This document shows positions 22,568-52,395 of a DNA stretch of 64,000 nucleotides, in pieces. Under the pieces are notes generated by a model, which was not told the origin of the DNA, did not search any database, and worked only from the letters and a program-made list of their open reading frames with translations. The stretch's first letter is position 1, and the number at the start of each line of letters is the position of its first letter. The stretch covers positions 39,246,001 to 39,310,000 of the forward strand of contig OZ024750.1 of assembly GCA_964016885.1 (NCBI GenBank), read 5' to 3'. The stretch is from Eledone cirrhosa (lineage: Eukaryota). The position numbers and the translations under genes are program-made.

Positions 22568-24540
22568 TTAACCCTTTACCATTTACATTACTCTATATAT
22601 ACTATTGTATTTTTGTGGTAAAGGCTTTACCTCACATAATATCCCACATAACATTTACATTACTCTATATATACTATTGTATTTTTACAGTAAAGCCTTT
22701 ACCTCACATAACATTTACATTACTCTATATATACTATTATATTTTCACAGTAAAGGCTTTACCTCACATAATATCTCACATAACATTTACATTACTCTAT
22801 ATATACTATTGTATTTTCACAGTAAAGGCTTTACCTCACATAACATTTACATTACTCTATATATACTATTATATTTTCACAGTAAAGGCTTTACCTCACA
22901 TAACATTTACATTACTCTATATATACTATTATATTTTCACAGTAAAGGCTTTACCTCACATAACATTTACATTACTCTATATATACTATTATATTTTCAC
23001 AGTAAAGGCTTTACCTCACATAAAATCTCGCATAACATTTACATTACTCTATATTTACTATTGTATTTTCACAGTAAAGGCTTTACCTCACATAATATCT
23101 CACATAACATTTACATTACTCTATATATACTATTATATTTTCACAGTAAAGGCTTTACCTCACATAAAATCTCGCATAACATTTACATTACTCTATATTT
23201 ACTATTGTATTTTCACAGTAAAGGCTTTACCTCACATAATATCTCGCATAACATTTACATTACTCTATATATACTATTATATTTTCACAGTAAAGGCTTT
23301 ACCTCACATAATATCCCACATAACATTTACATTACTCTATATATACTATTGTATTTTTACAGTAAAGCCTTTACCTCACATAACATTTACATTACTCTAT
23401 ATATACTATTATATTTTCACAGTAAAGGCTTTACCTCACATAATATCTCACATAACATTTACATTACTCTATATATACTATTGTATTTTCACAGTAAAGG
23501 CTTTACCTCACATAACATTAACATTACTCTATATATACTATTATATTTTCACAGTAAAGGCTTTACCTCACATAACATTTACATTACTCTATATATACTA
23601 TTATATTTTCACAGTAAAGGCTTTACCTCACATAAAATCTCGCATAACATTTACATTACTCTATATTTACTATTGTATTTTCACAGTAAAGGCTTTACCT
23701 CACATAACATTTACATTACTCTATATATACTATTATATTTTCACAGTAAAGGCTTTACCTCACATAAAATCTCGCATAACATTTACATTACTCTATATTT
23801 ACTATTGTATTTTCACAGTAAAGGCTTTACCTCACATAATATCTCGCATAACATTTACATTACTCTATATATACTATTATATTTTCACAGTAAAGGCTTT
23901 ACCTCACATAATATCCCACATAACATTTACATTACTCTATATATACTATTGTATTTTTACAGTAAAGCCTTTACCTCACATAACATTTACATTACTCTAT
24001 ATATACTATTGTATTGTCACAGTAAAGGCTTTACCTCACATAATATCTCACATAACATTTACATTACTCTATATATACTATTATATTTTCACAGTAAAGG
24101 CTTTACCTCACATAAAATCTCGCATAACATTTACATTACTCTATATTTACTATTGTATTTTCACAGTAAAGGCTTTACCTCACATAATATCTCGCATAAC
24201 ATTTACATTACTCTATATATACTATTATATTTTCACAGTAAAGGCTTTACCTCACATAATACCTCACATAACATTTACATTACTCTATATTTACTATTGT
24301 ATTTTCACAGTAAAGGCTTTACCTCACATAATATCTCACATAACATTTACATTACTCTATATATACTATTGTATTTTCACAGTAAAGGCTTTACCTCACA
24401 TAATATCAAATTTGAGATTTTGATTTTATTTATTTTGAGAACAATATCTTAACATCAGTATGTGGGGCCAGTTATGGCCGAATAGAAAGAGGTGAGAGAA
24501 TTCTGGCCAGATATGGCCAGTTTGAATGCTAAAGGGTTAA
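22568..24540 (+). mobile_element. piggyBac-type MITE copy A with internal 60/72-bp satellite expansion (22578-24405)
   Basis: TTAA|CCCTTTACCATTTA ... TGAATGCTAAAGGG|TTAA. The body matches the unexpanded copy at 52190-52395. Confidence 0.85.
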
Positions 24541-24721
24541 AGGATTTAGTCAATTGTATCAACCACAGTACCAACTTTTTTCAAGCCTGGATTGTCATAG
24601 TGTTAAGTTACGGGATGTAAATATAGATACAGGATCACACACGTGTGGCTACCATGAGGAGTGGTTGTGTGAGAATATATATATATACTCACATTCATTC
24701 ACGTATACTCACGTATTTTTG

Positions 24722-25035
24722 ATTTCCATGTGTCTAACACACGTGGACATGCCCACAAAGTAAGAAAACAGCACAGTTCCCATGACTTTCGGAAACATTT
24801 TTTCACGCTCAGAGTTGCTGAAGCATGGAACAAACTACCTGCATCAGTTGTTAACTGTCGAGACACTGCATCCTTTAAGGCCTCCATGCTTCCCGAGATC
24901 CACCAACACTACAGCTAACACATACACACATGTACTTCCCTGACATTTGTGTATTATTCTATGTACTATACATGCACCTTTGACAAGTTGTAGTGCACCT
25001 GAGCACTTTACACAATAATTTCATTATTTCATTAT
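24722..25035 (+). mobile_element. CR1-clade LINE 3' fragment
   Basis: Encodes TRGHAHK..RKHFFTLRVAEAWNKLP and has the same 3' tail as the 30945-31900 copy. Confidence 0.85.
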
Positions 25036-25040
25036 TTTAT

Positions 25041-25092
<52 letters not shown>

Positions 25093-25263
25093 CTCACATT
25101 CATTCACATATACTCACACAGATTAATATATATTTATATATATGTATCACTCCATTATGTGTTACAGTCGATAGTCTGAGGCCATGCTGGGGCACCACCA
25201 CTATATATATATATATATATATATATAAAGAAGAAATTAAAAGATGGTTAGAAAAGTTCCAAG

Positions 25264-25334
25264 TATTTTATTATGCGCATTTCAAAAACAAATATCATCC
25301 AGGGACGATATTTGCGTTCTCATCAGATAAAATA
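25264..25334 (-). ncRNA. Minimal type-I hammerhead ribozyme motif (Penelope-like), minus-strand copy
   Basis: On -: tattttat CTGATGA [stem II] GAAA tgcgca TA ataaaata. Confidence 0.75.
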
Positions 25335-25438
25335 GGGAGACATGATATGAAGCTTAAAAAAGATACTTGTGAGCAAGGTAGTGTCTAATCAACATATTGC
25401 TCACAAGTGTCTTTTTTAAGCTTCATATCATGTCTCCC

Positions 25439-25509
25439 TATTTTATCTGATGAGAATGCAAATATCGTCCCAGGATGATATTTGTTTTTGAAATGCGCAT
25501 AATAAAATA
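25439..25509 (+). ncRNA. Minimal type-I hammerhead ribozyme motif (Penelope-like), plus-strand copy
   Basis: Stem I tattttat/ataaaata (8 bp), CTGATGA 25447-53, long stem II 25454-89, GAAA 25490-93, palindromic TGCGCA, predicted cleavage after A25501. Confidence 0.75.
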
Positions 25510-25587
25510 CACTGTCTAATGTGTCATTCCTTAGTTTTGATGTGATATACGGGATTAAATGTTAACAATATTTGACAGTATATATAT

Positions 25588-25762
25588 AATTGTTTCTACA
25601 TTTGGCACAAGGCCAGCAATTACCAGTACATTACTGGTACTTTATTTTATCGACCCCGTAAGGATGAAAAGCAAAGTTAACCTCGGCAGGATTTGAACTC
25701 AGATCCTAAAGGGACGTAACTATGTTGGAAAGCATGGCATCCGGCTCTCTACCTATACTGAC
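25588..25762 (-). mobile_element. SINE family 1
   Basis: Same consensus as the other family 1 copies. Confidence 0.8.
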
Positions 25763-25834
25763 AATCTACATAATGGGAAGAGGGTATTGCTGTTCAGGTA
25801 GCAGTGGCTTAAACCCCTCAGTATTTGGTTCAAC

Positions 25835-28385
25835 ACAATATATTCTTACAACACTATATATATACATCCCTATACAATATATTGTTACAACACTATATAT
25901 AAACCCCTATACAATATATTGTTACAACACTATATATATATATACACCCCTGTACAATATATTGTTACAACATTATATATACATCACTGTACAATATATT
26001 GTTACAACACTATATATATACACCCCTATACAATATATTGTTACAACACTATATATAAACCCCTATACAATATATTGTTACAACACTATATATATACACC
26101 CCTGTACAATATATTGTTACAACATTATATATACATCACTATACAATATATTGTTACAACACTATATATACATCACTATACAATATATTGTTACAACACT
26201 ATATATAAACCTCTATACAATATATTGTTACAACACTATATATATACACCCCTGTACAAAATATTGTTACAACACTATATATACATCCCTATACAATATA
26301 TTGTTACAACACTATATATATATCACTGTACAACATATTGTTACAACATTATATATACATCACTGTACAATATATTGTTACAACACTATATATACATCAC
26401 TGTACAATATATTGTTACAACATTATATATACATCACTGTACAATATATTGTTACAACACTATATATACATCACTGTACAATATATTGTTACAACACTAT
26501 ATATACATCACTGTACAATATATTGTTACAACATTATATATACATCACTGTATATAGTGTTGTAACAATATATTGTATAGTGATGTATATATATATTGTT
26601 ACAACATTATATATACATCACTATACAATATATTGTTACAACACTATATATACATCACTGTACAATATATTGTTACAACACTATATATACATCACTGTAC
26701 AATATATTGTTACAACACTATATATACATCACTGTACAACATGTTACAACATTATATATACATCACTATACAATATATTGTTACAACACTATATATACAT
26801 CACTGTACAATATATTGTTACAACACTATATATACATCACTGTACAATATATTGTTACAACACTATATATACATCACTGTACAATATATTGTTACAACAT
26901 TATATATACATCACTATACAATATATTGTTACAACACTATATATACATCACTGTACAATATATTGTTACAACACTATATATACATCACTATACAATATAT
27001 TGTTACAACATTATATATACATCACTATACAATATATTGTTACAACACTATATATACATCACTGTACAATATATTGTTACAACACTATATATACATCACT
27101 ATACAATATATTGTTACAACACTATATATACATCACTGTACAATATATTGTTACAATATTATATATACATCACTGTACAATATATTGTTACAACACTATA
27201 TATATACATCCCTATACAATATATTGTTACAACACTATATATACATCACTGTACAATATATTGTTACAACACTATATATACATCACTGTACAATATATTG
27301 TTACAACACTATATATACATCACTGTACAATATATTGTTACAACACTATATATACATCACTGTACAATATATTGTTACAACACTATATATACATCACTGT
27401 ACAATATATTGTTACAACACTATATATACATCCCTATACAATATATTGTTACAACACTATATATACATCACTGTACAATATATTGTTACAACACTATATA
27501 TACATCCCTATACAATATATTGTTACAACACTATATATACATCACTGTACAATATATTGTTACAACACTATATATACATCACTGTACAATATATTGTTAC
27601 AACACTATATATACATCACTGTACAATATATTGTTACAACACTATATATACATCCCTATACAATATATTGTTACAACACTATATATACATCACTGTACAA
27701 TATATTGTTACAACACTATATATACATCACTGTACAATATATTGTTACAACACTATATATACATCACTGTACAATATATTGTTACAACACTATATATATA
27801 CATCACTATACAATATATTGTTACAATATTATATATACATCACTGTACAATATATTGTTACAATATTATATATACATCACTGTACAATATATTGTTACAA
27901 CACTATATATATACATCACTATACAATATATTGTTACAACACTATATATATATCACTGTACAATATATTGTTACAATATTATATATACATCACTATACAA
28001 TATATTGTTACAACACTATATATATATCACTGTACAATATATTGTTACAATATTATATATACATCACTATACAATATATTGTTACAACACTATATATATA
28101 CATCACTATACAATATATTGTTACAACACTATATATACATCACTGTACAATATATTGTTACAACACTATATATACATCACTGTACAATATATTGTTACAA
28201 CACTATATATACATCACTGTACAATATATTGTTACAACACTATATATACATCACTGTACTATATATTGTTACAACACTATATATACATCACTGTACAATA
28301 TATTGTTACAACACTATATATATACATCACTATACAATATATTGTTACAACACTATACAATATATTGTTACAACACTATATATAT
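25835..28385 (+). repeat. 37-bp satellite (acaatatattgttacaacactatatatacatcactgt), ~68 units, one inverted unit at ~26550-26592
   Basis: Period 37 is visible. Degenerate relatives lie at 29190-29595 and 29780-30150. Confidence 0.95.
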
Positions 28386-28575
28386 CATCATCATCATCAT
28401 CATCGTTTAACATCTATCTTCCACGCTTGCATGGGTTTGGACGGGAATTTTCCCACTTGAGGCAAGATTGGTTGTCTTGCTCGTATAGGACTCTCTGGCG
28501 GGTTTTTTTACGGTTGGATGCCCTTCCTAACACCAACTACGTTTACAGTGTGGACTGGGAGGTTTTTACCGTGTT
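28386..28575 (-). mobile_element. RTE 3'-tail fragment with (GAT)n end
   Basis: Reverse complement of the 50930-51122 RTE 3'UTR. Confidence 0.85.
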
Positions 28576-28665
28576 GTAAACCACTATATTTTACAGTTCA
28601 GGCAGCAGTGGCTTAAACCCCTCAGTATTCGGTCCAATTCACTATATCCTGCTTCTGGGGTTAAC

Positions 28666-28935
28666 TTTTGCAGGGTTTCCAAGAATCATGGTAAGAAGTC
28701 ACAGGCAATGGTTTGCTGCAGAAAAAATGTATCAATACATTCTCAGATTAGAAACCGGGTTCAAATATATTCAACAAAGTAGACTTCTTTCTTAAAGTCT
28801 TTTGCAGGGTTTCCAAGTATCATGGTAAGAAGTCACAGGCAATGGTTTGCTGCAAAAAAAGTGTATCAATACATTCTCAGATTAGAAACCAGGTTCAAAT
28901 ATATTCAACAAAGTAGACTTCTTTCTTAAAGTCTT
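28666..28935 (+). repeat. ~134-bp near-perfect tandem duplication
   Basis: ttttgcagggtttccaag...aaagtcttt occurs twice. Confidence 0.85.
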
Positions 28936-29003
28936 TCAATGTGAGGTTGTGGTGTTAAACTGAGTTATTGTTTAGATCAGAATCCCTCAATACTATATAA
29001 TAC

Positions 29004-29180
29004 AATTGTTTCTACTTTTGGCACAAGGCCAGCAATTTCCCCCCCCACTGCATTACTGGTACTTTATTTTACCATAAGGATGAGAGGCAAAGTTAATGTT
29101 AGCGAGATTTGAACTCAGAACTCAAACGGCCATAACTCTGTGCTGCAAATCATGGTGTCTGACGCTCTACCGATACTGCC
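29004..29180 (-). mobile_element. SINE family 1
   Basis: Same consensus as the other family 1 copies. Confidence 0.75.
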
Positions 29181-29595
29181 TCATAATATAATGTTGTTAC
29201 AACTATATATATACACTACTATACGATATATTGTTGTTACTACATTATATATATACATCATTATACAATATATTGTTACAACACTATATATACATCACTA
29301 TACAATACATTGTTGTTACTACACTATAATACATCATTATACAATATATATACATCACTATACAATATAACGTTGTTACAACATTATATATACATCACTA
29401 TACAATGTAACGTTGTTATAACACTATATATACATCACTATACAATATAATGTTATAACACTATATATATACATCACTATACAATATAATGTTGTTACAA
29501 GATTATATATACATCACTATACAACATATTGTTACATTATATATACATCACTATACAATATATTGTTACATTATATATACATCACTATACAATAT

Positions 29596-29775
29596 AATTG
29601 TTTCTACTTTTGGCACAAGGCCAGCAAATACCCAGTACATTACTAGTACTTTATTTTATCGACCCCGTAAGGATGAAAGGCAAAGTTGACCTCGGCGGGA
29701 TTTGAACTTAGAATGGAAAGGGCCGTAACTCTATGCGTCAAAGCATGACGTCCGACCCTCTACCTATATTGCCAA
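29596..29775 (-). mobile_element. SINE family 1
   Basis: Same consensus as the other family 1 copies. Confidence 0.8.
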
Positions 29776-31900: not shown

Positions 31901-33494
31901 TCACTTCAACCTCAAATAATATTGTAGGTCAGTTATGATAGAACAGATAGACCTATGATTAACGGCATTCCAGATGTGACCATATCATCTTCTTAGGGAT
32001 ATATGTATTTTCCTTATATAAAACAGTCGAGTGTGATATGAGAGAGAAATGGCTGCTATATCTAGCAGGTCGAGCGATACCGTGACGGCTCCTATGGTTA
32101 ATACCTTTTTTATTCTTATGTTCCGTTTGCTTCCCCATGGAACATTAAGTGACGAGAGATCTCTATGCCGCACGTTTGCAAGCTTTGTCTGTTCTGGGAC
32201 TCAAATCACTTCTAACCATTTTGTCCGCTAGTAACGAAGTAATATTTGTCAAGATGGCGTGTCGGTTGTAGAAGGGGAGGTAAGTCAGTAAGTTTAAGTC
32301 TTTCAATGGATTTTTAAACTGATTAAATAATTGAATGTGTTGTATGTGTGTGTGTATATAATGTGTTGTATGTGTGTGTGTGTATATATGTCTGTATATC
32401 ACCGTCTTTTCATGTCCTCTTCCCACGTTTACATGTTGGAGGGGTCATCTTATTCAGAGTTACTGCTCTGATTCTTTGCCCTGTGTTATATCTTAAGTAT
32501 TGTCATTTGGTGCCAGGTAAGGGTAATTAGACTCACCTAGCTAGAAATGATCCTCTTCTGAGTATCGATGTCTCACAGGTGGGCATTAATCATTATTTAT
32601 AAGAAATAATTATTTATGTCTTGCGGTTTTGTTGTGACTTTTTACATTCTGTGTTCCAATTCTATAGTTGATCTTGCCTCAAGTGGGACTACCCCCGTCC
32701 AAACCCATGCAAGCGTGGAACATGGACGTTAAACGTTGATGATGATGATGATGATGATTGACAGTATGGTGTTGAGGGAGATGTAGCTGCTCTTTCTAGC
32801 AGGTCAGGCCGCCACGTAAAGGGTTCATCCATGAATTTGAAAGTGATTTTGATAATGCTTCAATCGTGTGTGATATGCGATATATATGGCTACTATTTCT
32901 AGCAGGTCAAGCAACAACGTGGCGACTCCCATTGTTGATTCTTCTTGAGTTCCATTTAATGATTATTTATCCCCACCGCTATCGATTTTACGTCTGTTTT
33001 TTTTTCTCTCCATACTTGGACGAGTTGGACCAGATTTTATCCCAGTTTCATGTGACAAGTAACTGGGAGTACAATCACTCATTGCTGGGGGTGCAGCAGC
33101 TGCACCCCCCCCCCCATTTAGTCATTTTTGTTAGAAATGAACGTCTGTACTCCACAAAAATGACTGGAGCAATAAACCTACGAGTACAACACTTGACTAT
33201 ACCTGACTATCACAAGTTTAACCCCCAGCTGCTGCTGCTGCTACAGCAACGTGAAATACTTTGCTCAAAGACTCAACATACCTTCCAATCTAGAAATCGA
33301 ACCTATGACCTTATAGTCATGCAACCAACACTAACCACTGGGCTCCACATATAGCTTTGTTCTCAGATTAACACCAGAAATGGCTACAACCAGGAATGTG
33401 TCGACTTTGAAGAGATTAAATAAAATTATTGTTGAAACAACATTTACAGTTACTGCTGCTAAAACTTTTGATACTTTATGAAAAAAACATTCCT

Positions 33495-33822
33495 GTTGGT
33501 GACATGATGAGAAGGATCCAGTCGATCCTGTAATGTAGTGTTGGTGACATGATGAGAAGGATCCAGTCGATCCTGTAATGTAGTGTTGGTGACATGATGA
33601 GAAGGATCCAGTCGATCCTGTAATGTAGTGTTGGTGACATGATGAGAAGGATCCAGTCGATCCTGTAATGTAGTGTTGGTGACATGATGAGAAGGATCCA
33701 GTCGATCCTGTAATGTAGTGTTGGTGACATGATGAGAAGGATCCAGTCGATCCTGTAATGTAGTGTTGGTGACATGATGAGAAGGATCCAGTCGATCCTG
33801 TAATGTAGTGTTGGTGACATGA
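33495..33822 (+). repeat. 45-bp minisatellite x~7, contiguous with RTE 3'UTR remnant (to ~33920)
   Basis: Period 45, then gtgttaggaagggcatccagctgtagaaa. Confidence 0.9.
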
Positions 33823-34132: not shown

Positions 34133-34178
34133 TCCTTATCAAATAAAAAATAACAGTAATAGAACTTTTATATACAAT

Positions 34179-34489: not shown

Positions 34490-34672
34490 CTAGAGAGAAC
34501 TACTGAGAGCTTCCATTTTCTGGTTAATTTCAGCTCGTTTCTTACTTATGCCTGGCTCACTATCAATGTACGCTTGTTTATTCATTTTATTGTTTATTAA
34601 TCTCTCAGCATAGTTTATAGCCTGATTGATGAGTTCCTTGTACTGGCTATCAAGTTTCTGCAGTTCAGCAAC
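34490..34672 (-). CDS. RPN1: Ribophorin I (OST subunit 1) last coding exon (exon 10)
   Basis: CAG|VAELQKLDSQYKELINQAINYAERLINNKMNKQAYIDSEPGISKKRAEINQKMEALSSSL*, which resembles the RPN1 C-terminus. Confidence 0.9.
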   Translation of the reverse strand, partial: VAELQKLDSQYKELINQAINYAERLINNKMNKQAYIDSEPGISKKRAEINQKMEALSSSL

Positions 34673-35257
34673 CTGAAAAAATATTCAAACAAAAACACAT
34701 TTAGCTCATATTTAACTCTTAAAATCCTCTATCATCATCATCATTGTGTTTTATGTCTGTTCTTCCATGCATGCATAGGTTAGATGGGTCCTTCTCAGTA
34801 TGGCATCTCTCCTAGCAAAGTTTGAACTGACTTTCACAGACCAAATCAGTACGTAGAGCTAAGCCATCTCAGAAATGAGCAGCATCTTGCTTACATACGT
34901 CTCAACATTCTATAGAGTACACCAGATGCATTTTATCGTGGAACCAACAGGGAGGTCCCTGTATCTTTGGCACAATTGAAGAGTCCTCTCGACCCTTAGT
35001 TTTCTATGGTTGGATGCCCTTCCCATCAACCACTTTACAGAGTGTAATGGGTGCATTCTATCATGCCACCAGCATTAGATAGGTTGTCATATTCTTCACT
35101 GTTACTATAACAGCAGTAAATATTTTAAGGCCATTTTTATCTGTCAAATCTCCATGAATGGCTTTATGATTGAAATAATGATTATAGGGTCTTCAGTGAA
35201 ATGAGGGGAGGGGAAGGGAGGGGATCAAGATTAATTCAGATTCTGAACAATCTGATC

Positions 35258-35764
35258 CGTAAAGTGATAGTGCTGGTGTCATGGTAAAATACACCCAGTA
35301 CACTCTGTAAAGTGATAGTGCTGGTGTCACAATAAAATGTACCCAGTCCACTCTGTAAAGTGGTACTGCTGGTGTCATGGTAAAATATATCTAGTACACT
35401 CTGTAAAGTGGTAGTGCTGGTGCTACAATAAAATGTACCCAGTCCACTCTGTAAAGTGGTACTGCTGGTGTCATGGTAAAATATATCTAGTACACTCTGT
35501 AAAGTGGTAGTGCTGGTGCTACAATATAATGTACCCAGTCCACTCTGTAAAGTGGTAGTGCTGGTGTCACAATAAAAAGCATCCAATAAACACTGTAAAG
35601 TGGTTGGTGTTAGAAGGAACCAGCAGTAGAGACTATACCAAAATAAAACATGAGTTAATTGTGGTCTTTTGACCTGTCCTAATTTTAGAATTTGAGGACC
35701 TGTCCAGCCCACACCAGCGTAGAAGATGGACATAAAATAACAGTGATGATGATGATGATGATGA
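35258..35764 (+). repeat. 46-bp minisatellite running into an RTE-tail element ending (GAT)n
   Basis: Units of cactctgtaaagtggtagtgctggtgtca lead into gtggttggtgttagaagg. Confidence 0.8.
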
Positions 35765-35871: not shown

Positions 35872-38800
35872 TTAACTCTTTAGCATTTAAACCTGCCACA
35901 TCCGGCTAGAATTCCCACACCTCTTTCTGTTCAAACCAGCTGTAACCGGCAACACATACTGATATTAATGTATTATTCTCAACATAAATAATATCAAAAT
36001 CTCATAGATTCGATATTATGTGAAATAATTATGTGAGGTAAAGACATTAATGTGAAAATATAACAGTAAATATAGAGTAATGTAAATGTTATGTGAGATA
36101 TTATACGAGGTAAAGCCTTTACTGTGAAAATATAATAGTATATATAGAGTAATGTAAATGTTATGTGAGGTAAAGCCTTTACTGTGACAATACAATAGTA
36201 TATATAGAGTAATGTAAATGTTATGTGAGATATTATGTGAGGTAAAGCCTTTACTGTGAAAATATAATAGTATATATAGAGTAATGTAAATGTTATGTGA
36301 GGTAAAGCCTTTACTGTGAAAATATAATAGTATATATAGAGTAATGTAAATGTTATGTGAGGTAAAGCCTTTACTGTGACAATACAATAGTATATATAGA
36401 GTAATGTAAATGTTATGTGAGATATTATGTGAGGTAAAGCCTTTACTGTGAAAATATAATAGTATATATAGAGTAATGTAAATGTTATGTGAGATAGTAT
36501 GTAAGGTAAAGCCTTTACTGTGAAAATATAATAGTATATATAGAGTAATGTAAATGTTATGTGAGGTAAAGCCTTTACTGTGACAATACAATAGTATATA
36601 TAGAGTAATGTAAATGTTATGCGAGATATTATGTGAGGTAAAGCCTTTACTGTGAAAATACAATAGTATATATAGAGTAATGTAAATGTTATGTGAGATA
36701 TTATACGAGGTAAAGCCTTTACTGTGAAAATATAATAGTATATATAGAGTAATGTAAATGTTATGTGAGGTAAAGCCTTTACTGTGACAATACAATAGTA
36801 TATATAGAGTAATGTAAATGTTATGCGAGATATTATGTGAGGTAAAGCCTTTACTGTGAAAATACAATAGTATATATAGAGTAATGTAAATGTTATGTGA
36901 GATATTATACGAGGTAAAGCCTTTACTGTGAAAATATAATAGTATATATAGAGTAATGTAAATGTTATGTGAGGTAAAGCCTTTACTGTGACAATACAAT
37001 AGTATATATAGAGTAATGTAAATGTTATGTGAGATATTATGTGAGGCAAAGCCTTTACTGTGAAAATATAATAGTATATATAGAGTAATGTAAATGTTAT
37101 GCGAGATATTATGTGAGGTAAAGCCTTTACTGTGAAAATATAATAGTATATATAGAGTAATGTAAATGTTATGTGAGGTAAAGCCTTTACTGTGACAATA
37201 CAATAGTATATATAGAGTAATGTAAATGTTATGTGAGGTAAAGCCTTTACTGTGACAATACAATAGTATATATAGAGTAATGTAAATGTTATGTGAGGTA
37301 AAGCCTTTACTGTGACAATACAATAGTATATATAGAGTAATGTAAATGTTATGTGAGGTAAAGCCTTTACTGTGACAATACAATAGTATATATAGAGTAA
37401 TGTAAATGTTATGTGAGGTAAAGCCTTTACTGTGACAATACAATAGTATATATAGAGTAATGTAAATGTTATGTGAGGTAAAGCCTTTACTGTGACAATA
37501 CAATAGTATATATAGAGTAATGTAAATGTTATGTGAGGTAAAGCCTTTACTGTGACAATACAATAGTATATATAGAGTAATGTAAATGTTATGTGAGGTA
37601 AAGCCTTTACTGTGACAATACAATAGTATATATAGAGTAATGTAAATGTTATGTGAGATATTATGTGAGGTAAAGCCTTTACTGTGAAAATATAATAGTA
37701 TATATAGAGTAATGTAAATGTTATGCGAGATATTATGTGAGGTAAAGCCTTTACTGTGAAAATATAATAGTATATATAGAGTAATGTAAATGTTATGTGA
37801 GGTAAAGCCTTTACTGTGACAATACAATAGTATATATAGAGTAATGTAAATGTTATGTGAGGTAAAGCCTTTACTGTGACAATACAATAGTATATATAGA
37901 GTAATGTAAATGTTATGTGAGGTAAAGCCTTTACTGTGACAATACAATAGTATATATAGAGTAATGTAAATGTTATGTGAGGTAAAGCCTTTACTGTGAC
38001 AATACAATAGTATATATAGAGTAATGTAAATGTTATGTGAGATATTATGTGAGGTAAAGCCTTTACTGTGAAAATATAATAGTATATATAGAGTAATGTA
38101 AATGTTATGCGAGATATTATGTGAGGTAAAGCCTTTACTGTGAAAATATAATAGTATATATAGAGTAATGTAAATGTTATGTGAGGTAAAGCCTTTACTG
38201 TGACAATACAATAGTATATATAGAGTAATGTAAATGTTATGTGAGGTAAAGCCTTTACTGTGACAATACAATAGTATATATAGAGTAATGTAAATGTTAT
38301 GTGAGGTAAAGCCTTTACTGTGACAATACAATAGTATATATAGAGTAATGTAAATGTTATGTGAGGTAAAGCCTTTACTGTGACAATACAATAGTATATA
38401 TAGAGTAATGTAAATGTTATGTGAGGTAAAGCCTTTACTGTGACAATACAATAGTATATATAGAGTAATGTAAATGTTATGTGAGGTAAAGCCTTTACTG
38501 TGACAATACAATAGTATATATAGAGTAATGTAAATGTTATGTGAGGTAAAGCCTTTACTGTGACAATACAATAGTATATATAGAGTAATGTAAATGTTAT
38601 GTGAGGTAAAGCCTTTACTGTGACAATACAATAGTATATATAGAGTAATGTAAATGTTATGTGAGGTAAAGCCTTTACTGTGACAATACAATAGTATATA
38701 TAGAGTAATGTAAATGTTATGTGAGGTAAAGCCTTTACTGTGACAATACAATAGTATATATAGAGTAATGTAAATGTTATGTGAGGTAAAGCCTTTACTG

Positions 38801-39508
38801 TGACAATACAATAGTATATATAGAGTAATGTAAATGTTATGTGAGGTAAAGCCTTTACTGTGACAATACAATAGTATATATAGAGTAATGTAAATGTTAT
38901 GTGAGGTAAAGCCTTTACTGTGACAATACAATAGTATATATAGAGTAATGTAAATGTTATGTGAGGTAAAGCCTTTACTGTGACAATACAATAGTATATA
39001 TAGAGTAATGTAAATGTTATGTGAGGTAAAGCCTTTACTGTGACAATACAATAGTATATATAGAGTAATGTAAATGTTATGTGAGGTAAAGCCTTTACTG
39101 TGACAATACAATAGTATATATAGAGTAATGTAAATGTTATGTGAGGTAAAGCCTTTACTGTGACAATACAATAGTATATATAGAGTAATGTAAATGTTAT
39201 GTGAGGTAAAGCCTTTACTGTGACAATACAATAGTATATATAGAGTAATGTAAATGTTATGTGAGGTAAAGCCTTTACTGTGACAATACAATAGTATATA
39301 TAGAGTAATGTAAATGTTATGTGAGGTAAAGCCTTTACTGTGACAATACAATAGTATATATAGAGTAATGTAAATGTTATGTGAGGTAAAGCCTTTACTG
39401 TGACAATACAATAGTATATATAGAGTAATGTAAATGTTATGTGAGGTAAAGCCTTTACTGTGACAATACAATAGTATATATAGAGTAATGTAAATGTTAA
39501 AGGGTTAA
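35872..39508 (-). mobile_element. piggyBac-type MITE copy B with ~3.5-kb internal 60/72-bp satellite (36015-39497), RPN1 intron 9
   Basis: TTAA|CTCTTTAGCATTTA ... TAAATGTTAAAGGG|TTAA. The array is inverted relative to copy A. Confidence 0.85.
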
Positions 39509-39533
39509 GGCAGGAATGATGAAATAGACTCAC

Positions 39534-39779
39534 TTTTTCGGCAGCTTCAGCTCCTTCTGCCTTTAAAGTAGCTTGGAGAGTATGTATCTGCTGAGTGAGC
39601 TGTTTGTAATCACTGTCAGTCTTCTTACGACTGGCCTGGAAAACATTAGCTTCTTTGTTGCTTTTAAACTTGTTTGTAGCATCATCATAAGTTTGATACA
39701 GAGCACTTCTCTTGTCATGGCTATTCTGAACTTCTTCAATCAGACTTGCAATTCTCATTTTGCTCTCTTTAGCTTCATC
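39534..39779 (-). CDS. RPN1: Ribophorin I exon 9
   Basis: CAG|DEAKESKMRIASLIEEV...LKAEGAEAAEK|GTGAG; 246 bp, phase 0/0. Confidence 0.92.
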
Positions 39780-42678: not shown

Positions 42679-42975
42679 TTAACTCTTTAACATTTAAACT
42701 GGCCATATCCGCCCATCATTCTCTCACCTGTTTCTGATCAAACTGGCTGTAACCAGTCATTCATACTGATGTTAAGGTATTGTTCTCAAAATAAATAGCA
42801 TCAAAATCTCATAGATTCGATATTATGTGAAGTAAAGCCTTTACCATGAAAATACAATAGTAAATATAGAGTAATCATCATCATCATTTTATGTCCGCTT
42901 TTCCCTGCTTGCAAGGATGGGACGGGTCCTATTCAGCACAGCATCTTTCCACTTGTCACGGTCCTAAAGGGTTGA
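42679..42975 (-). mobile_element. piggyBac-type MITE copy D (unexpanded), interrupted by an RTE-tail insertion at ~42874
   Basis: TTAA|CTCTTTAACATTTA start, same body as copy C, remnant TAAAGGGTT at ~42965. Confidence 0.7.
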
Positions 42976-43222: not shown

Positions 43223-43555
43223 CTGAAGAATATCAACAATGAAAATAACAATTTTACTTCAACCTCTCATACAATTTGATACTTCTTTGTCACACACACA
43301 CACACATATATATATATGTATATATATATTAATAAAAGGAATTCCAACTTTGTCTGATTTACTCGTTTTATTTACAATCCTTTGAAATTTATAATGGTAT
43401 TAGAATGAAATAGTATGGTAGAATATTAAATGTTAAGTGTTAATTGAACAAGTACTTTCATGCTTTCGCAATCTTCAAGTTCATATTGTGTGGTGACAGT
43501 CAAGTTTGCAATTAATATAATCTTCTATACACAATCATACACACCCGTGTATATT

Positions 43556-43626
<71 letters not shown>

Positions 43627-44159
43627 CACCCAGCCCACACTGTAAATGTAGTTGGCATTAGGAAGAGCATCCAGCCGCCAGCCGTAGAAAACCAACCAGA
43701 AACACTCCTATATGTGCGAGACATGGTCACCCAACCCAACTTGCCTCTAAATGGGACAAACCCGTCTAACCCATGCTAGCGTGGAAGATAGATGTTAATC
43801 GATGATGATATCAAGGAGGCAATTGCTTCTACACCAACAATGCCAACTCTTTTCTTAAAAAAAGCTACAATTTTAATGAATCTTATGATGAATAAAATAT
43901 AATTATTTTCACACCTCCCTATGTTTTTTAAACATATTAAATATTTCAACAAAAATACGATGTGGAGAATAAAGTAAATATATTTTCACACTTCGTTATG
44001 TTTTAAAAATATACTAAAATATTACAACTAGAATTACATTGTAGAGTGATAATAAAACAATTACAATGTACAAACTTTATACCCTTCACCTGACATTTGT
44101 AGTTTAAAGACATTTATTTATTTAATGCCTGCCAAAATTGAGGTGATAATAAAAAAATT

Positions 44160-45172: not shown

Positions 45173-45707
45173 GCTGCAGCTCTGTAACTTTGAATTTAAA
45201 ATATCTTTGCCCAAAGAATCGTTCCACTGAGTGGTTGGGAAAAATAAGAGAGAATGTAGATTGATGCTATAAAACTGAAACATGGTCTTTATCTTGACTC
45301 TAATTTATGAAGAACAGAGACACTAACTCTCAACATTCTCTATTACATACAACCGCCTTAGTATTCTTGAAAACTATAACATAACACTAGGACTGACCAC
45401 ATTAAATATTGAAGTCTTCACTCTAATACTACAAAATTTCACAAAGCTCTGTCTAGTAATAAAAATACTATAAACATTTGAATTAACAAATCCATATTTT
45501 TAGATATTATCTGCTAAATGTGGTTTGCATTTGGAAGGGCATCCAGACATAGAAACCAGGCTAGAAATAGTCCCGTATGAACAAGACAATCATTTGATCT
45601 GGCTTGTCTCACAATGGGACAACTTGTGTAACCCATGGTAGCGTGGAAAAATGGACGTTAAACAGAGATGATGATGAGTAAAGAGAAAATGAAGACAATA
45701 TATTTAC

Positions 45708-45807
45708 TTAGAACCTTCTGGAAGAATTATCTTCACTGTCAAATGATCAACAATTTGGTCGTCAAATATATGATCAATAAGACGCATCTTTAATAAATAT
45801 TTGTCAC
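45708..45807 (-). CDS. RPN1: Ribophorin I exon 6
   Basis: [33 protein letters not shown]; 100 bp, AG/GT. Confidence 0.95.
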
Positions 45808-45914
45808 CTACAAAACAGAGATAACATACATTAGTTTTCCTCATCCACCAACAGGAAAATACACACACATATATACATGCACTCTCACACACACATACAC
45901 AAACTTATATAGGG

Positions 45915-46250
45915 TAAAAACCCCCTTCGGTCAGTAATGACCATGGGATTTACACCTAGGAAGTTCCCCTCCGAGGCACAAGTCCAGGCAAGGTTGTTTG
46001 TGGAAGACCAGCAGTCACCCATGTATACCGATCTCTCCTTCTCCATGCCACCAATGTTTTCCAAAGGAAAGGCAATGGCTGATACAGCTTGGCACCAGTG
46101 ATGTCACAACTCATTTCTACAGTTGAGTCAACTGGAGCAACATGAAATAAAGTGTCTTGCCCAAGAACACAACACAAAGCCCGGTCTGAGAATCGAACTC
46201 ACAACCTCACGATTGTAAGCCCAATGCTCTAACCACTCAACCATGCTCCT
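45915..46250 (-). mobile_element. Full-length tRNA-derived SINE family 2 (CORE-like)
   Basis: A-box tggttgagtgg, B-box gttcgattc, cttgggcaagacact core. Colinear with 52703-53025. Confidence 0.85.
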
Positions 46251-46294
46251 TCACCCACAAACATACACACACTCATACATAGAGAGACAATGTG

Positions 46295-46860
46295 TTAGTG
46301 TAGGTGCCACAATACACCCAGTACATCCTGTAAAGTGGTAGTATTGGTGCCACAATAAAATGCACCCAGTACACCCTGTAATGTGGAAATGTTGGTGCCA
46401 CAATACACCTAGTACACCCTGTAAAGTGGTAGTGTTGGTGCCACAATACACCCAGTACACCCTGTAAAGTGGTAGTATTGGTGCCACAATACACCCAGTA
46501 GACCCTGTAAAGTGGTAGTGTTGGAGCCACAATACACCTAGTACACCCTGTAAAGTGGTAGTGTTGGTGCCACAATACACCCAGTACACCCTGTAAAGTG
46601 GTAGTATTGGTGCCACAATAAAATGCACCCAGTACACCCTGTAATGTGGAAATGTTGGTGCCACAATACACCTAGTACACCCTGTAAAGTGGTAGTATTG
46701 GTGCCACAATAAAATGCACCCAGTACACCCTGTAATGTGGAAATGTTGGTGCCACAATACACCTAGTACACCCTGTAAAGTAGTAGTGTTGGTGCCACAA
46801 TACACCCAGTACACCCTGTAAAGTGGTAGTATTGGTGCCACAATACACCCAGTACATTCT
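46295..46860 (+). repeat. 43/48-bp minisatellite related to RTE 3'UTR subrepeat
   Basis: Units of cccagtacaccctgtaaagtggtagtattggtgccacaata. Confidence 0.9.
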
Positions 46861-47087
46861 GCAAAGAAGCCATGCCAGATATAAAATGTGAAAGTTATAT
46901 ATTTTACTAACTCACTCCACCCATTATTTTCAAACTGATTTGAAAATAATAGACCTGGTAATCATCATCATCACTGTTTTATGTCTATTTTTTTATACTA
47001 GCATGGGTTAAACGAGTTGTCCTCTTGTGAGCAATGTTAGGCCAGGTGACCATGTCTTGCTCATACAGAACTGATTTTGGTTTGGTT

Positions 47088-48800
47088 TGTCGTGACACCT
47101 ACATGACCACTTTACAGTGTGGACTGGGAGGTTTTGTCATGACACCTACATGACCATTTTACAGTGTGGACTGGGTGCTTTTTGTTGTGACACCTACATG
47201 ACCACTTTACAGTGTGGACTGGGAGGTTTATTCATGACACCTACATGACCACTTTACAGTGAGGACTGGTGCTTTTTGTCGTGACACCTACATGACCACT
47301 TTACAGTGTGGACTGGGAGGTTTTGTCATGACACCTACATGACCACTTTATTGTGTGGACTGGGAGGTTTTGTCATGGCACCTACATGACCACTTTACAG
47401 TGTGGACTGGGAGGTTTTGTCATGACACCTACATGACCATTTTACAGTGTGGACTGGGAGGTTTTGTCATGACACCTACATGACCACTTTACAGTGTGGA
47501 CTGGGAGGTTTTGTCATGACACCTACATGACCACTTTACAGTGTGGACTGGGTGCTTTTTGTTGTGACACCTACATGACCACTTTACAGTGTGGACTGGG
47601 AGGTTTATTAATGACACCTACATGACCACTTTACAGTGAGGACTGGTGCTTTTTGTCGTGACACCTAAATGACCACTTTACAGTGTGGACTGGGAGGTTT
47701 TGTCATGACACCTACATGACCACTTTACTGTGTGGACTGGGAGGTTTTGTCATGGCACCTACATGACCACTTTACAGTGTGGACTGGGAGGTTTTGTCAT
47801 GACCACTTTACAGTGTGGACTGGGAGGTTTTGTCATGACACCTACATGACCACTTTACAGTGTGGACTGGGAGGTTTTGTCATGACACCTACATGACCAC
47901 TTTACAGTGTGGACTGGAGGCTTTTTGGCGTGACACCTACATGACCATTTTACAGTGTGTACTGGGGGCTTTTTGCCATATCACCATCACAACCACTTTA
48001 CAGTGTGGGCTGGGCGCATTTTGCCATGTCACCATCACAACCACTTTACAGTGTGGGTTGAATTTTTTTTGCCATGTCACCATCACGATCTCACCTACAC
48101 AACCACTTTACAGTGTGGATTGGGGGCTGTTTGTCGTGACACCTATACGACCACTTTACAGTGTGGGCTGGGTGCTTTTTGTCGTGACACCTATACGACC
48201 ACTTTACAGTGTGGGCTGGGTGCTTTTTGTCGTGACACCTATACGACCACTTTACAGTGTGGACTGGGAGCTTTTTGTCGTGACACCTATACGACCACTT
48301 TACAGTGTGGGCTGGGGGCTTTTTGTCGTGACACCTATACGACCACTTTACAGTGTGGACTGGGAGCTTTTTGTCGTGTCACCATCACGACCACTTTACA
48401 GTGTGGGCTGAGGGCTTTTTGTCGTGACACCTATATGACCACTTTACAGTGTGGGCTGGGGGCTTTTTGTCGTCTCACCATCACGACCACTTTACAGTGT
48501 GCGCTGGGGGCTTTTTGTCGTGACACCTATATGACCACTTTACAGTGTGGGCTGGGGGCTTTTTGTCGTCTCACCATCACGACCACTTTACAGTGTGGGC
48601 TGGGGGCTTTTTGTCGTCTCACTATCACGACCACTTTACAGTGTGGGCTGGGGGCTTTTTGTCGTCTCACCATCACGACCACTTTACAGTGTGGGCTGGG
48701 GGCTTTTTGTCGTCTCACTATCACGACCACTTTACAGTGTGGGCTGGGGGCTTTTTGTCGTCTCACCATCACGACCACTTTACAGTGTGGACTGGGGGCT
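47088..48800 (-). repeat. 47-bp minisatellite (~36 units) expanded from an RTE 3'UTR (tail remnant at 46960-47088)
   Basis: The unit is the reverse complement of gtaggtgtcacgacaaaaa..cagtccacactgtaaa(t)gtgg found in the RTE 3'UTR. Confidence 0.9.
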
Positions 48801-48859
48801 TAACTGGATAATAAAAATGTTAATCTGTTAATCCAACAAGTCAACAGTAACTGGTTTAC

Positions 48860-49052
48860 CTTTATTGTAAAGATATTCATAACTAGGTGTATTGTATCCA
48901 ATATAATACTGGGTCTTCCAACCACCAAACAAGGGGAACCTAGGACGAAGTTCTAATTCCACAGAATCATCCATTTCCTTCAAATGACTTGTAGAGATAT
49001 TTCCAATTTCATCACGGTAATAAACATCTCTGGCAGCAGCTGGTAGAATGGT
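48860..49052 (-). CDS. RPN1: Ribophorin I exon 5
   Basis: [64 protein letters not shown] (RPN1 signature, NxS sequon); 193 bp. Confidence 0.97.
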
Positions 49053-49243
49053 CTAGATGGTGATAAAATAGAAGGGGAAAATAGATTTATATTTTATATA
49101 TAAGAGAGAGATAGAGATAGAGTTTTGGCAGAAGAGTCTATATGGTGATAAAATAGAAGGGAAAGATAGATTTATATGAGAGAGAGAGAGCTTTGGCAGA
49201 ATGGTCTACATGGTGGAAAAATAGAAGGGAAAATAGATTTATA

Positions 49244-49276
<33 letters not shown>

Positions 49277-51122
49277 GATGAAATGCAGTTCGGGTTTGTG
49301 TCAGGCAAAAGTACCACAGACGCTCTTTTCATTGTACGACAACTACAGGAGAAGTACCTAGCTAAAAGTAAACCCCTATACTTAGCTTTTGTCGACTTGG
49401 AGAAAGCCTTCGACAGAGTCCCCCGTTCCATTATCTGGTGGTCTCTTAGAAAACTAGGTGTTGACGAATGGCTTGTGAGAGCTATACAAGCCATGTATAA
49501 AGAAACAGTCAGTAAGGTTAGAATTAACAACGAATATAGTGAAGAGTTTAGCGTAAAAGTTGGTGTCCATCAGGGCTCTGTACTTAGCCCCCTACTATTT
49601 ATTATTGCCCTTCAGGCTATAACAGAGGAGTTCAAGACCGGCTGCCCATGGGAACTCCTATACGCAGATGATCTAACGCTCATAGCTGAATCAATGACCG
49701 AACTAGAGAAGAAATTCCAAACGTGGAAGCACGGCCTAGAATCAAAAGGCCTTAAAATTAACCTGGCTAAGACTAAAGTTCTAGTTTGTAGGAAAGAAAA
49801 TAAGGCGGCGGTCCCATCGGGGAAATGGCCATGCTCAGTGTGTAGGAAAGGCGTAGGTAGAAACTCCATTTTATGTCCCAAATGCAAAGTATGGGTGCAT
49901 AAAAGATGTAGTGGGATCACAGGTAAGCTAACTAAGAACATAGATTTTACATGTGGCCGGTGCTCTGGTGCAATAAGTAGCAGCAAGTGCCCACAAAATA
50001 CTAGCTCCTTCAACTGCGCAGAGGGTTCTATAGAAATAGTGGACAGCTTCCGTTATCTGGGTGACAAAATCAGCAGTGGGGGAGGGTGCTCTGAAAGTAC
50101 AGTAGCTAGAGTCAGAACTGGATGGAAAAAGTTCAGAGAGCTTATACCACTATTAGCCGCTAGAGGGTTCTCCCTAAAAATGAAAGGCAGGTTATACGAT
50201 GCCTGCATACGAACAGCAATGCTGCATGGCAGTGAGACCTGGGCATTGTGTGCAGAGGATATACGCAGACTAGAGAGGAACGAAGCTTGCATGCTCCGCT
50301 GGATGTGCAATAGTAATATACGTGAACGGCAAAGCATAAACGAACTAAGGAAAAAATTAGAAATAAGAGGGATCAGATGTTGTTTACTCGAGAGAAGGCT
50401 ACGTTGGTACGGTCACGTGATGCGCATGAAAGACGACAGCTGTATAACAAAGTGCAGGGCAATAAAGATAGACGGTAGCCACGGAGTAGGCAGACCCAGA
50501 AAAACATGGGACGAGCTGATAAATTCCGACCTCACACGCTTACACCTCTCCAAGACAATGTCACTGGACCGAGACCTTTGGCGGTACTCAGTAATAGAGA
50601 AGACCCGCCTTACCTAAATACAAAGTAAAAACCTACTACAGTCAGTAGGCACCTCTATCAAAACACACCCCCGTCCCACCACCTCCACCCCACCCACACC
50701 GCCCCTTTCAATGTAAAGTTATGTTGGTCCCACAACATCCAGGCCGAAACAAATGAGATCGTGTAGGTGTCACGACAAAAAACACACAGTCCACGCTGTA
50801 AATGTGGCCGTGTAGGCAACACGGTAAAAACCTCCCAGCCCCACACTGTAAATGTGGTTGGTGTTAGGAAGGGCATCCAGCTGTAGAAAACCCGCCAGAC
50901 AGTCCACGCTGTAATGTGGCCGTGTAGGCAACACGGTAAAAACCTCCCAGCCCCACACTGTAAATGTGGTTGGTGTTAGGAAGGGCATCCAACTGTAGAA
51001 AACCCGCCAGACAGTCCTATGCGAGCAAGACAACCACTCTTGCCTCAAGTGGGAAAACCCCCGTCCAAACCCATGCAAGCGTGGAACACGGACGCTAAAC
51101 CTGATGATGATGATGATGATGA
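49277..51122 (+). mobile_element. 5'-truncated RTE-clade LINE: RT (QFGF, FVDLEKAFD, GVHQG, YADD) + PHD-like finger + 3'UTR + (GAT)n tail
   Basis: Uninterrupted ORF to 50617 with RT motifs. Inserted in (TA)n within RPN1 intron 4. Confidence 0.93.
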
Positions 51123-51514
51123 TATATACATATATGCAGGTAAAATACTATTATAACAAATTTTTCAGTATAATGAAACTTTTTTCAATCCCTGAGATAA
51201 CAAAACACTTGATTTGTTTTGGTTGATCTCGTTATAAAGAATTTTTCATTACAACAAATATTTTTTATACCTCGTGAATTTCATTATAATGGAATTTCAC
51301 TGTATATACTTTCTTTTCATTCTGTAACTCCTGAAGGAGTCGTAGAGGAGGAGGGGGGGGGGGGGGGGGGGCATATTGACATACAGCGTTTCTAGGGCAT
51401 TTTAAAACCTGGCCGAGCACATTTCCTCTCCAGGACTGAATACAATAGATTTCTTCCAGAGAAGAATAGAGAGAGGGAGAGAATGGAAGTGAGAAAGAGA
51501 TACAGAGGAAGAAT

Positions 51515-51660
51515 CAACCCCAGTACTAGACTGGTACTTTTTTTTATCAACCTTGAATAGATGAAAAGCAAAGTTGACATCGGTGGGATTTGAACTCAGA
51601 GAGCAAAAGGTTGAAATGGACCAGCAAAACATTCTATCTGATGTTCTAACGACTCTGCCA
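51515..51660 (-). mobile_element. Degenerate SINE family 1
   Basis: ctggtactt..gatgaaaagcaaagttgac..gggatttgaactcaga. Confidence 0.6.
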
Positions 51661-51923
51661 TATATATATATAGATATATATATACAGTGTCACAATAAAA
51701 AGTACCCAGCTCATACTGTAGCTTGGTTGGCGCTAGGTGTGTGTGTTTATATTCCATAACTTAGCTGTTCAACAAAGAGACTGATAAAATAAGTACTAGG
51801 CTTGAAAATAAATATTAGGGTCAATAGGATTGACTAAATCAACCGGTTTAAGGTAGTGTCCCAGCATGGTCACAGTCTAATGACTAAAGCCAGCAAAATA
51901 CCTAAAAGAACTGAGTTACTTAC

Positions 51924-52130
51924 TTTGAAAGACTTGATAGAGGAGACACCATCTTGGTTCCGTTGATAATCATAGCGAGAGAAAGGTCCCTTGAGGGTGG
52001 CCCCAGAATGAGTTACTCGGAAGTGTTCTTCCACTGCAATATTGCCCCAGTGGGAAATCTCAATAACACGTTCCATGCTAGTTACAGTCAAGAATGGGGT
52101 GTTATTTTCAAAATGAACTTTTAGGTCTTC
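51924..52130 (-). CDS. RPN1: Ribophorin I exon 4
   Basis: [35 protein letters not shown]...[22 protein letters not shown]; 207 bp. Confidence 0.97.
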
Positions 52131-52189
52131 CTGTAGAAAATAAAAGACAAGGAAATATTATAGAACAATTATTGAATGTGATAACAGCT

Positions 52190-52395
52190 TTAACTCTTTA
52201 GCATTTAAACTGGCCAGAATTCTTTCACCTTTTTCTGTTCAAACCAGGCATAACCAGCTGCTCATACTGATGTTAAGGTATGGTTCTCAAAATAAATAAT
52301 ATTAAAATCTCATAGAGTCAATATTATGTGAGATAAAGCCTTTACCAATAAAATGTAATAGTATATATAGAGTAATGTAAATGCTAAAGGGTTAA
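52190..52395 (-). mobile_element. piggyBac-type MITE copy C, complete and unexpanded (~200 bp)
   Basis: TTAA TSDs and 14-bp TIRs CTCTTTAGCATTTA / TAAATGCTAAAGGG. Contains a single satellite monomer. Confidence 0.85.

Follow-up and report, generated by a model that had tools for sequence, protein, structure and literature searches.

Amplification of a segment inside a MITE and the seeding of arrays from one locus into another have both been published for other animals, so a further case should be no great surprise to the specialist. Xmix and Xstir of Xenopus (T2-MITE, Kolobok) are among the closest systems and, like the element analyzed here, are abundant old MITEs in which an internal segment was tandemly amplified and which occur in plain, array, and composite forms; their target is TTAA, the sequence that also borders the element here (PMC6004289, PMC12628747). 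Their termini are AGGRR (Kolobok), in contrast to CCCTTT here; the repeat here is the TIR-proximal 60/72 bp, including 6 bp of the TIR, and its two arrays lie in bodies that are 18.5% apart. In miDNA4, a Tc1/mariner MITE of Xenopus tropicalis, one monomer or a variable array is likewise found inside the element, and microhomology-driven expansion and homogenization among paralogous arrays were proposed (PMC12628747, PMC9659126); however, it belongs to another superfamily and its monomer is thought to have been captured, whereas the monomer here is the element's own end. The insertion of Rsp-like repeats into 1.688 clusters of Drosophila simulans and mauritiana also resulted in near-identical arrays with a common junction inside older, diverged homologous repeats, and the mechanisms proposed were interlocus conversion, by SDSA and template switching, or re-integration of eccDNA (PMC7403614). 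In Drosophila, a different satellite serves as the landing pad, whereas here this role falls to a dispersed copy of a DNA transposon, whose own terminal segment makes up the array.

Three further systems bear a partial resemblance. Tetris TIR-220 (PMC4079207) is non-autonomous and its internal repeat number varies and can reach kilobases, as here, but it is a foldback element. DTC84 of the clam Donax (PMC3879986) is a non-autonomous mollusc element with variable internal repeats, but it is pearl-like, has an AA target and contains one to five repeats; neither it nor Tetris is of the TTAA/CCC type. The CMITE elements of corals (PMC2872659) are MITEs tied to piggyBac-like transposons and form tandem arrays, but reportedly of whole elements, whereas the repeat here is a 60/72-bp segment of the end and lies within a single element.

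Four copies of one element and the RPN1 exons

The window (the whole stretch of 64,000 nucleotides that was analyzed) contains four homologous copies, A (1,973 bp), B (3,637 bp), C (206 bp), and D (297 bp), of which A is oriented opposite to the other three. They and the neighboring exons of the gene for ribophorin I (RPN1) are arranged as follows:

22568..24540, + strand: copy A, 3′ of the last RPN1 exon, reading TTAA, TIR, array, body, TIR, TTAA (array end first)
22580..22638, + strand: A unit 1, A's own monomer, with TG at unit positions 37–38 as in C and D
22652..24402, + strand: A units 2–27, donor-type array of 60/72-bp units with CA at 37–38
24408..24536, + strand: A body and distal TIR, without the 13-bp duplication, 18.5% from the B body
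34493..34675, − strand: last coding exon of RPN1, flanked by arrays A and B, which are inverted to each other
35872..39508, − strand: copy B, within the last RPN1 intron, 25 bp in, and opposite in orientation to A
36017..36088, − strand: B unit 55, the diverged monomer native to B, which contains the 13-bp duplication
36089..39496, − strand: B units 1–54; 22 identical 60-mers adjoin the TIR, older 60/72 types lie toward the body
39534..39779, − strand: RPN1 exon with 92% identity to RPN1 of Octopus bimaculoides; 25 bp separate its donor site from B
42679..42975, − strand: copy D, unexpanded, in an RPN1 intron, right TIR broken, right flank TTGA
42876..42963, no strand assigned: 88-bp insert in D, a fragment of a different dispersed repeat, with (CAT)n at its start
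52190..52395, − strand: copy C, intact and unexpanded, 198 bp between the TTAA ends

C matches D with an E value of 4e-52 and the body of B with one of 1e-40, and the 14-bp TIR inside the TTAA matches at 12 (A), 12 (B), and 13 (C) of 14 positions. The initial annotation had recognized four copies of one element, which is correct as to homology and, for A, B, and C, as to TTAA at both ends and the TIR, but not for the right end of D. It had assigned one monomer each to C and D; both are indeed unexpanded, but only C is plain, while the foreign insert interrupts D and takes the place of 7 bp of its right TIR. The closing stem of C is present in both the MFE and the centroid fold. Amplification of the TIR-proximal segment in A and B, both of which retain the element ends, had been noted correctly, but the unit numbers are 27 and 55 instead of ∼28 and ∼56, and most units of A are not 60 bp long (17 of 72 bp and 9 of 60 bp, plus the last, compared with 40 of 60 bp and 14 of 72 bp, plus the last, in B).

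The bodies of A, B, C, and D differ by 15.7–18.5% in all pairs. Because they are about equally far apart, the four copies appear to be independent, old insertions. A related species has the left TIR of C at the orthologous site too, and the insertion of C is older than the split of the two. The copies are thus not stages of one lineage, and the proposal that the element was caught at "each stage of becoming a satellite" was not supported.

A high-copy, TTAA-ended family

Members of the family end at an identical TTAA (position 52395) and then diverge; this holds for at least 1,177 contigs from this species (X2), at least 1,977 from the relative (X1), and 7,684 (X5) and 8,273 (X6) reads (agreement 0.36–0.37). 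TTAA is present on both sides in three of the four copies (A, B, and C) and at this family-wide right end. The 14-bp TIR starts with CCCTTT, or with CTCTTT at one end of each of B, C, and D. As C was the majority second TIR base in reads (552/654 in X5 and 592/675 in X6, 84–88%), CCC can be considered the family form. The TIR of piggyBac elements comprises about 12–19 bp and begins with C[C/A/T][C/A/T][T/G/A][T/A/G][T/G/A] (PMC5381638), which agrees with both the CCCTTT termini and the TIR length found here. Kolobok and T2-MITE elements also have a TTAA target, but an RR (AGGRR) terminus (PMC6004289); membership was rejected, as the termini here start with pyrimidines (CCC or CTC). C is a short non-coding element with TIRs, and copies with common ends are numerous in X1, X2, X5, and X6. 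The piggyBac-like MITE signature assigned earlier is therefore supported, and the sequences indicate that the family is an old, high-copy, TTAA-ended, piggyBac-like MITE of ∼200 bases in an octopod.

No empty TTAA site was found among the joints listed; the TTAA may be a duplication or terminal sequence. No transposase family (Pfam) was matched in the window, neither in the 14 frames scanned first nor in 110 frames of 60 or more codons (chosen outside the arrays and beyond position 14,800); the scan returned RPN1, one frame with RT and PHD, and two matches below the cutoff (REX1-B and DPF1-3 N) on RPN1 exons. A 22-nt motif of the monomer had no match in metagenome, prokaryote, and viral collections. 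The literature searched, judged by titles and the opening of abstracts, listed nothing on this octopod element, although the family may be recorded in Repbase, Dfam, subscription-only journals, or supplementary files.

The depth of the X5 RAD reads, a sample biased against arrays without a cut site, was about equal over the monomer (10,968–11,850) and the body (11,871–12,036), and no excess of monomer was observed. Satellite DNA proper consists of long arrays that lack element ends and abound in the genome; arrays A and B comprise 1.8 and 3.4 kb and retain the element ends. From the read depths, expanded copies look rare, and two of them within 11 kb suggest local exchange.

Near-identical arrays in diverged bodies

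The bodies of A and B differ at 24 of 130 sites (18.5%), which makes them the most diverged of the six pairs, with a longest exact match of 12 bp. The array consensus units, in contrast, differ at 1 of 59 bases (Fisher P = 0.0009; P = 0.002 against the lower divergence of the native monomers, 45/333). Within the 59-bp core, 16 of the 27 A units are identical to some B unit and 49 of the 55 B units to some A unit, and whole 60/72-bp units are identical for 4 of 26 (A) and 5 of 54 (B). The two arrays agree in their junction, in which two 12-bp tails are the most frequent, and in being polymorphic at positions 28 and 33 of the unit; their longest exact match is 147 bp, the next among 210 array pairs being 46 bp. 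Private variants occur in A (T at position 20 in six units; the tail AAATCTCG in five) and in B (GT at 55–56 in three units). The near-identity of the arrays in unrelated bodies, in the only two expanded copies of the window, is the opposite of what transposition of an expanded element predicts, and the notion that expanded copies act as satellite vehicles is not supported.

Beyond the TTAA, the flanks of A and B are unrelated (scores of 22 and 18; shuffled mean 18, maximum 25), and segmental duplication was therefore rejected. A crossover or inversion between A and B as the present state was rejected as well, both because the last RPN1 exon is in gene orientation and because each native monomer is still with a body of its own type.

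The first unit of A carries TG at positions 37–38, as do C and D, whereas all other 81 units carry CA. In a monomer tree (on 59 bp only), it clusters with C and D (support 0.76) and with C (0.90). The marker at 37–38 resembles a CpG-decay site and could recur. A has CCC at both ends, and its array a higher-order repeat of ∼9 units. The 13-bp duplication in B unit 55 is the mark of a family-wide subfamily, with loose ends behind position 52336 in 252 X1 contigs and before 52350 in 1,588 X5 reads. The TIR of B has the A that gives a 3-bp microhomology (TAA) at the array junction. B is not a simple donor, however, because T at position 20, present in its unit 55 and in the six A units, is missing from B units 1–54.

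Where readable, the array unit is near the family majority, which lowers the expected distance between A and B somewhat. A "young donor", that is, an array nearer to the family master than the old copies, was considered, but a unit of 59 bp holds too little sequence to demonstrate this. The array unit gave no support for a special hairpin (dimer z = −1.72; 12 of 200 shuffles equally good).

Elsewhere, the same element end forms arrays of 63-bp period and of ∼39–67-bp units that take in the TIR, the TTAA, and flank, that is, overrun the element end, and the opposite end forms 38–44-bp arrays. Amplification has therefore been recurrent and did not need transposition. Three junction variants of 60-bp period, absent from A and B, were found at 8–14 times single-copy depth in X2 and X1, bearing in mind that contig depth is no copy number. 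As they occur in both species, 60-bp arrays elsewhere may be old; the donor may therefore be a third locus, and A may be an overwritten earlier array. The exact A/B junction was absent from the 15 of 461 joints listed.

Origin of the arrays

We consider it likely that A–D are old insertions and that the array of A was copied from B, or from a B-type copy, by non-crossover ectopic repair instead of being transposed, because transposition of an expanded element would keep the bodies as alike as the arrays. The family would have spread by cut-and-paste, presumably with a transposase, before this species split from its relative. Tandem duplication and expansion of the TIR-proximal segment would then have taken place in a member of the subfamily with the 13-bp duplication; the strongest candidate for this birthplace is B, where slippage may have made use of the TAA present at its junction. 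A break in the single monomer of A would have been mended by synthesis on the donor array as template, followed by annealing out of register; alternatively, an array circle may have integrated by homology. Either could result in the structure observed, namely, A's own TIR and first monomer, the donor tract, and A's own body. Separate turnover of each array would have led to the 22 identical units in B and, in A, to the higher-order repeat of nine units. Any crossover between these inverted arrays would invert the last RPN1 exon and be purged, so that only conversion would remain.

Whether A and B instead both began as arrays, in a subfamily that transposed long ago, and were homogenized by exchange while their bodies drifted, was weighed as the foremost rival, but we regard it as unlikely. 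The 60-bp-period junction variants of both species fit it, as does the homogenization of paralogous MITE arrays proposed for miDNA4; however, the monomer and body of A belong to the non-duplicated TG type but its array to the duplicated CA type, degenerate edge units are lacking in A except for unit 1, and ectopic exchange would be required all the same. That expanded elements are still mobilized, A and B having arisen by transposition of one expanded copy, is very unlikely: the TIRs and TTAA kept in both, the CCC at both ends of A, and the possible variation of active piggyBacs at TIR positions 2 and 3 are outweighed by the divergence of the A and B bodies, the lack of a transposase family in the window frames scanned, and the age of C, which predates the species split.

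The position corresponding to 52383 is a recurrent breakpoint (in the 60- and 63-bp arrays and at the end of the D insert) and tandem repeats make up 41% of the window, which would suit independent amplification of A and B at a hotspot. This notion is extremely improbable, being already largely refuted by the common tails and polymorphisms and the 147-bp exact match. For comparison, six window arrays that arose independently from one parent, another dispersed repeat, have different periods, and no pair of them has more than 26 bp in common. Just as improbable is an artefact of assembly or polishing by which reads of one array were placed at two sites: the array sequences are those of the assembly and 22 consecutive units of B are identical, but the higher-order patterns differ and each array has its private variants.

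Tentatively, and with more doubt than conviction, one may envisage a homing minisatellite: across octopod genomes, the 60/72-bp array would turn MITE copies that are dead and fixed, thousands in number, into arrays of kilobase size. The terminal 60 bp would be the landing pad, breakage at a fragile site 8 bp inward of the terminus would start the process, and no transposase would be involved.

The locus is likely a new case of a known route of satellite DNA spread. Dispersed satellites inside transposable elements are usually read as carried by transposition, and the locus provides a base-level case in which array and carrier have different histories. Comparing a tree of bodies with a tree of arrays is a simple test, applicable to this family of more than 1,000 copies. 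The near-identical inverted arrays flanking the last exon of the conserved RPN1 are a predicted substrate for a damaging inversion.

The four MITE copies and their locus

Exons of the ribophorin I gene (RPN1) stretch between 34493 and position 56287 or beyond, and tandem repeats make up 41% of the window bases. The exon at 39534–39779 (minus strand) is 92% identical to ribophorin I of Octopus bimaculoides and 91% to that of Argonauta and O. vulgaris, which identifies the host as an octopod. The four MITE copies proposed in the initial annotation were borne out in the sequence (strands below are for the copies written array end first):

Copies of the TTAA-ended MITE
22568–24540, plus strand: copy A, past the last RPN1 exon
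35872–39508, minus strand: copy B, RPN1 intron
42679–42975, minus strand: copy D, RPN1 intron
52190–52395, minus strand: copy C, RPN1 intron

That description was correct for the most part. TTAA and terminal inverted repeats (TIRs) were found at both ends of A, B, and C (12, 12, and 13 matches, respectively, across the 14-bp TIR), but the right flank of D reads TTGA. The arrays are long as described, but comprise 27 units in A and 55 in B (17 and 14, respectively, are 72 bp long, 9 and 40 are 60 bp long, and a last unit completes each array) rather than ∼28 and ∼56 of one length; a 12-bp duplication extends the shorter unit to 72 bp. D is a plain, single-monomer copy, but its TIR is broken, 7 bp being swapped for an 88-bp foreign insert (42876–42963) from another dispersed repeat, which starts with (CAT)n and matches three further window sites. 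This insert ends 8 bp inside the terminus, where the junctions of the 60- and 63-bp arrays also fall, reflecting either chance or a break-prone site.

The element is bounded by TTAA and its 14-bp TIR opens with CCCTTT, consistent with the piggyBac TIR motif in the excerpt of PMC5381638, so it is putatively a piggyBac-type MITE and would work like one. No cognate transposase turned up among the window's open frames scanned against Pfam. Kolobok/T2-MITE was ruled out by the termini, as compared with the excerpt of PMC6004289.

The intronic ends at 39508 (B), 52190 (C), and 42975 (D) are all close to splice sites of RPN1 (25, ∼59, and ∼108 bp away), although the introns measure at least 2 kb; proximity to exons may favour the survival of old insertions, a post hoc notion from three intronic copies. 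An RPN1 exon frame (35994–39779, minus strand) stays open past the splice donor and on into array B, for 1,261 codons in all, and encodes a hydrophobic 20/24-residue repeat, which would be relevant only if the intron were retained.

Other features of the window
266–14770, plus strand: single 4,834-codon open frame rich in T, S, and P (up to 76%), 33-bp repeats mid-frame, non-repetitive C-terminal part
49157–50614, plus strand: 486-codon frame, reverse transcriptase then PHD finger, in an RPN1 intron
63034–63122 and 63912–64000: 89-bp perfect inverted repeat flanking a long (ACAT)n tract, running off the window end

The first frame has the appearance of a very large mucin-like exon; Pfam gave no match for the portions scanned, which are its N- and C-terminal parts. 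The 3′ 730 bp of the second recur at 56885–57606 (93%), and the inverted repeat is possibly a young foldback element.

Divergence of arrays and bodies

The bodies (non-array remainders) of the four copies are pairwise 15.7–18.5% apart, A and B being the most distant pair (24/130 sites, with no identical run longer than 12 bp). Between the A and B arrays, by comparison, the consensuses differ at one of 59 core sites (Fisher P = 0.0009 versus the bodies; P = 0.002 versus the 13.5% divergence of the native monomers). Units differ on average at 1.85 of 59 sites between the arrays, and at 1.47 and 1.07 within them; 16/27 A cores and 49/55 B cores have an identical partner in the other array, as do 4/26 and 5/54 whole units including tails. 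Both arrays have the same junction and the same two commonest 12-bp tails, and they vary alike at positions 28 and 33; the longest exact stretch in common is 147 bp. The other 209 pairs among 21 window arrays, serving as internal control, each have at most 46 bp in common. Six arrays kin to another dispersed repeat (four via dispersed homologues, the rest via self-BLAST) have at most 26 bp in common and periods of 43–112 bp. Given these short matches and differing periods, the likeness of A and B is unlike independent amplification.

Arrays kin to one segment of the second dispersed repeat (periods 43–112 bp)
33494–33822
35259–35604
46292–46856
47086–48801
50786–51017

This second element is a putative case of recurrent independent minisatellite birth in the window.

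A unit 1 carries TG at 37–38, as do C and D; the other 81 units carry CA. In a tree of the 59-bp core, based on little data, A unit 1 groups with C and D (support 0.76), and A and B array types are mixed. The flanks of A and B are unrelated to each other.

The family in public sequencing runs

Four public runs were aligned, at an identity level of 80%, to C together with the exon next to it: contigs labelled as the species itself, from which the assembly may derive and which are hence not independent (X2), contigs of a related organism (X1), and RAD-seq runs of other samples of the species (X5, X6). Alignments reached the terminal TTAA (52395) and then entered unrelated sequence in 1,177 X2 contigs, 1,977 X1 contigs, and 7,684 (X5) and 8,273 (X6) reads; among the joints listed from the four runs, no empty TTAA site was seen. 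Distal TIR base 2 was C in 552/654 (X5) and 592/675 (X6) reads, which makes CCC the form typical of the family and CTC the minority. B, C, and D (starting at 35872, 52190, and 42679) have in common their orientation and the CTC terminus (at most 12–16% of family reads), which may be a subfamily mark or result from local hopping. One X1 contig matches the RPN1 exon and its intron with 26 differences in 331 bases and carries on into the left TIR of C, so this insertion predates the split of the two organisms. A 13-bp duplication at the monomer inner end marks a subfamily found throughout the family (252 X1 contigs), present in B's own monomer and absent from A, C, and D; the CA state of the arrays occurs beside it in the loose-end consensus.

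Junction variants of 60-bp period, absent from the window, reached depths of 149.5 and 141 in X2, where a single copy has 10.6, and of 128.8 in X1, where it has 15.6. Each of the four runs also contained a 63-bp-period joint (in 2 and 4 contigs and in 55 and 126 reads). Elsewhere, some array units extend over the TIR and TTAA into foreign flank, and the element's other end forms short arrays. The exact A/B junction was not among the joints listed (15 of 461; 12 of 436 with inserted letters). Thus, the element forms arrays recurrently, some crossing its boundary, and A's donor may be a third locus. B units 1–54 lack T20 of B's own monomer. RAD depth showed no excess of monomer relative to body (X5: 10,968 and 11,850 versus 12,036 and 11,871; X6: 11,619 and 12,596 versus 11,264 and 11,800). 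Expanded copies would accordingly be a small minority, but arrays that lack a cut site are under-sampled in RAD data.

A probable array transfer between resting copies

Tandem amplification inside MITEs is known, according to the excerpts available, from Xmix/Xstir and miDNA4 (reviews PMC12628747, PMC9659126), Tetris, DTC84, and CMITE; for Rsp-like, interlocus conversion or eccDNA has been proposed as the route by which near-identical arrays were seeded into homologous repeats of greater age (excerpt of PMC7403614). Literature searches, judged from titles and abstract openings rather than from repeat databases or supplements, brought up no article treating this octopod element.

The initial annotation took the copies for stages of becoming a satellite and suggested that expanded copies may be its vehicles. 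This interpretation is not supported, with bodies far apart and arrays near-identical: as body and array move together, transposition cannot yield young arrays in old bodies. The better reading, which we consider probable, is that an array was copied between resting MITE copies. A consists of its own TIR, its own first monomer, a foreign tract, and its own body, with switch points within ∼20 bp of shared sequence, the expected product of ectopic non-crossover repair from an array. Synthesis-dependent annealing that returns out of register would yield this layout, and so, equally, would an array circle that integrates. Of the candidate donors, B is the nearest: it lies 11.3 kb from A, inverted, and belongs to the right (13-bp-duplication) subfamily, and no other copy has a TIR that provides the 3 bp of junction microhomology. 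As the last coding exon of RPN1 (34493–34675) sits between the two arrays, an A–B crossover would invert it, and presumably only conversion would survive between them.
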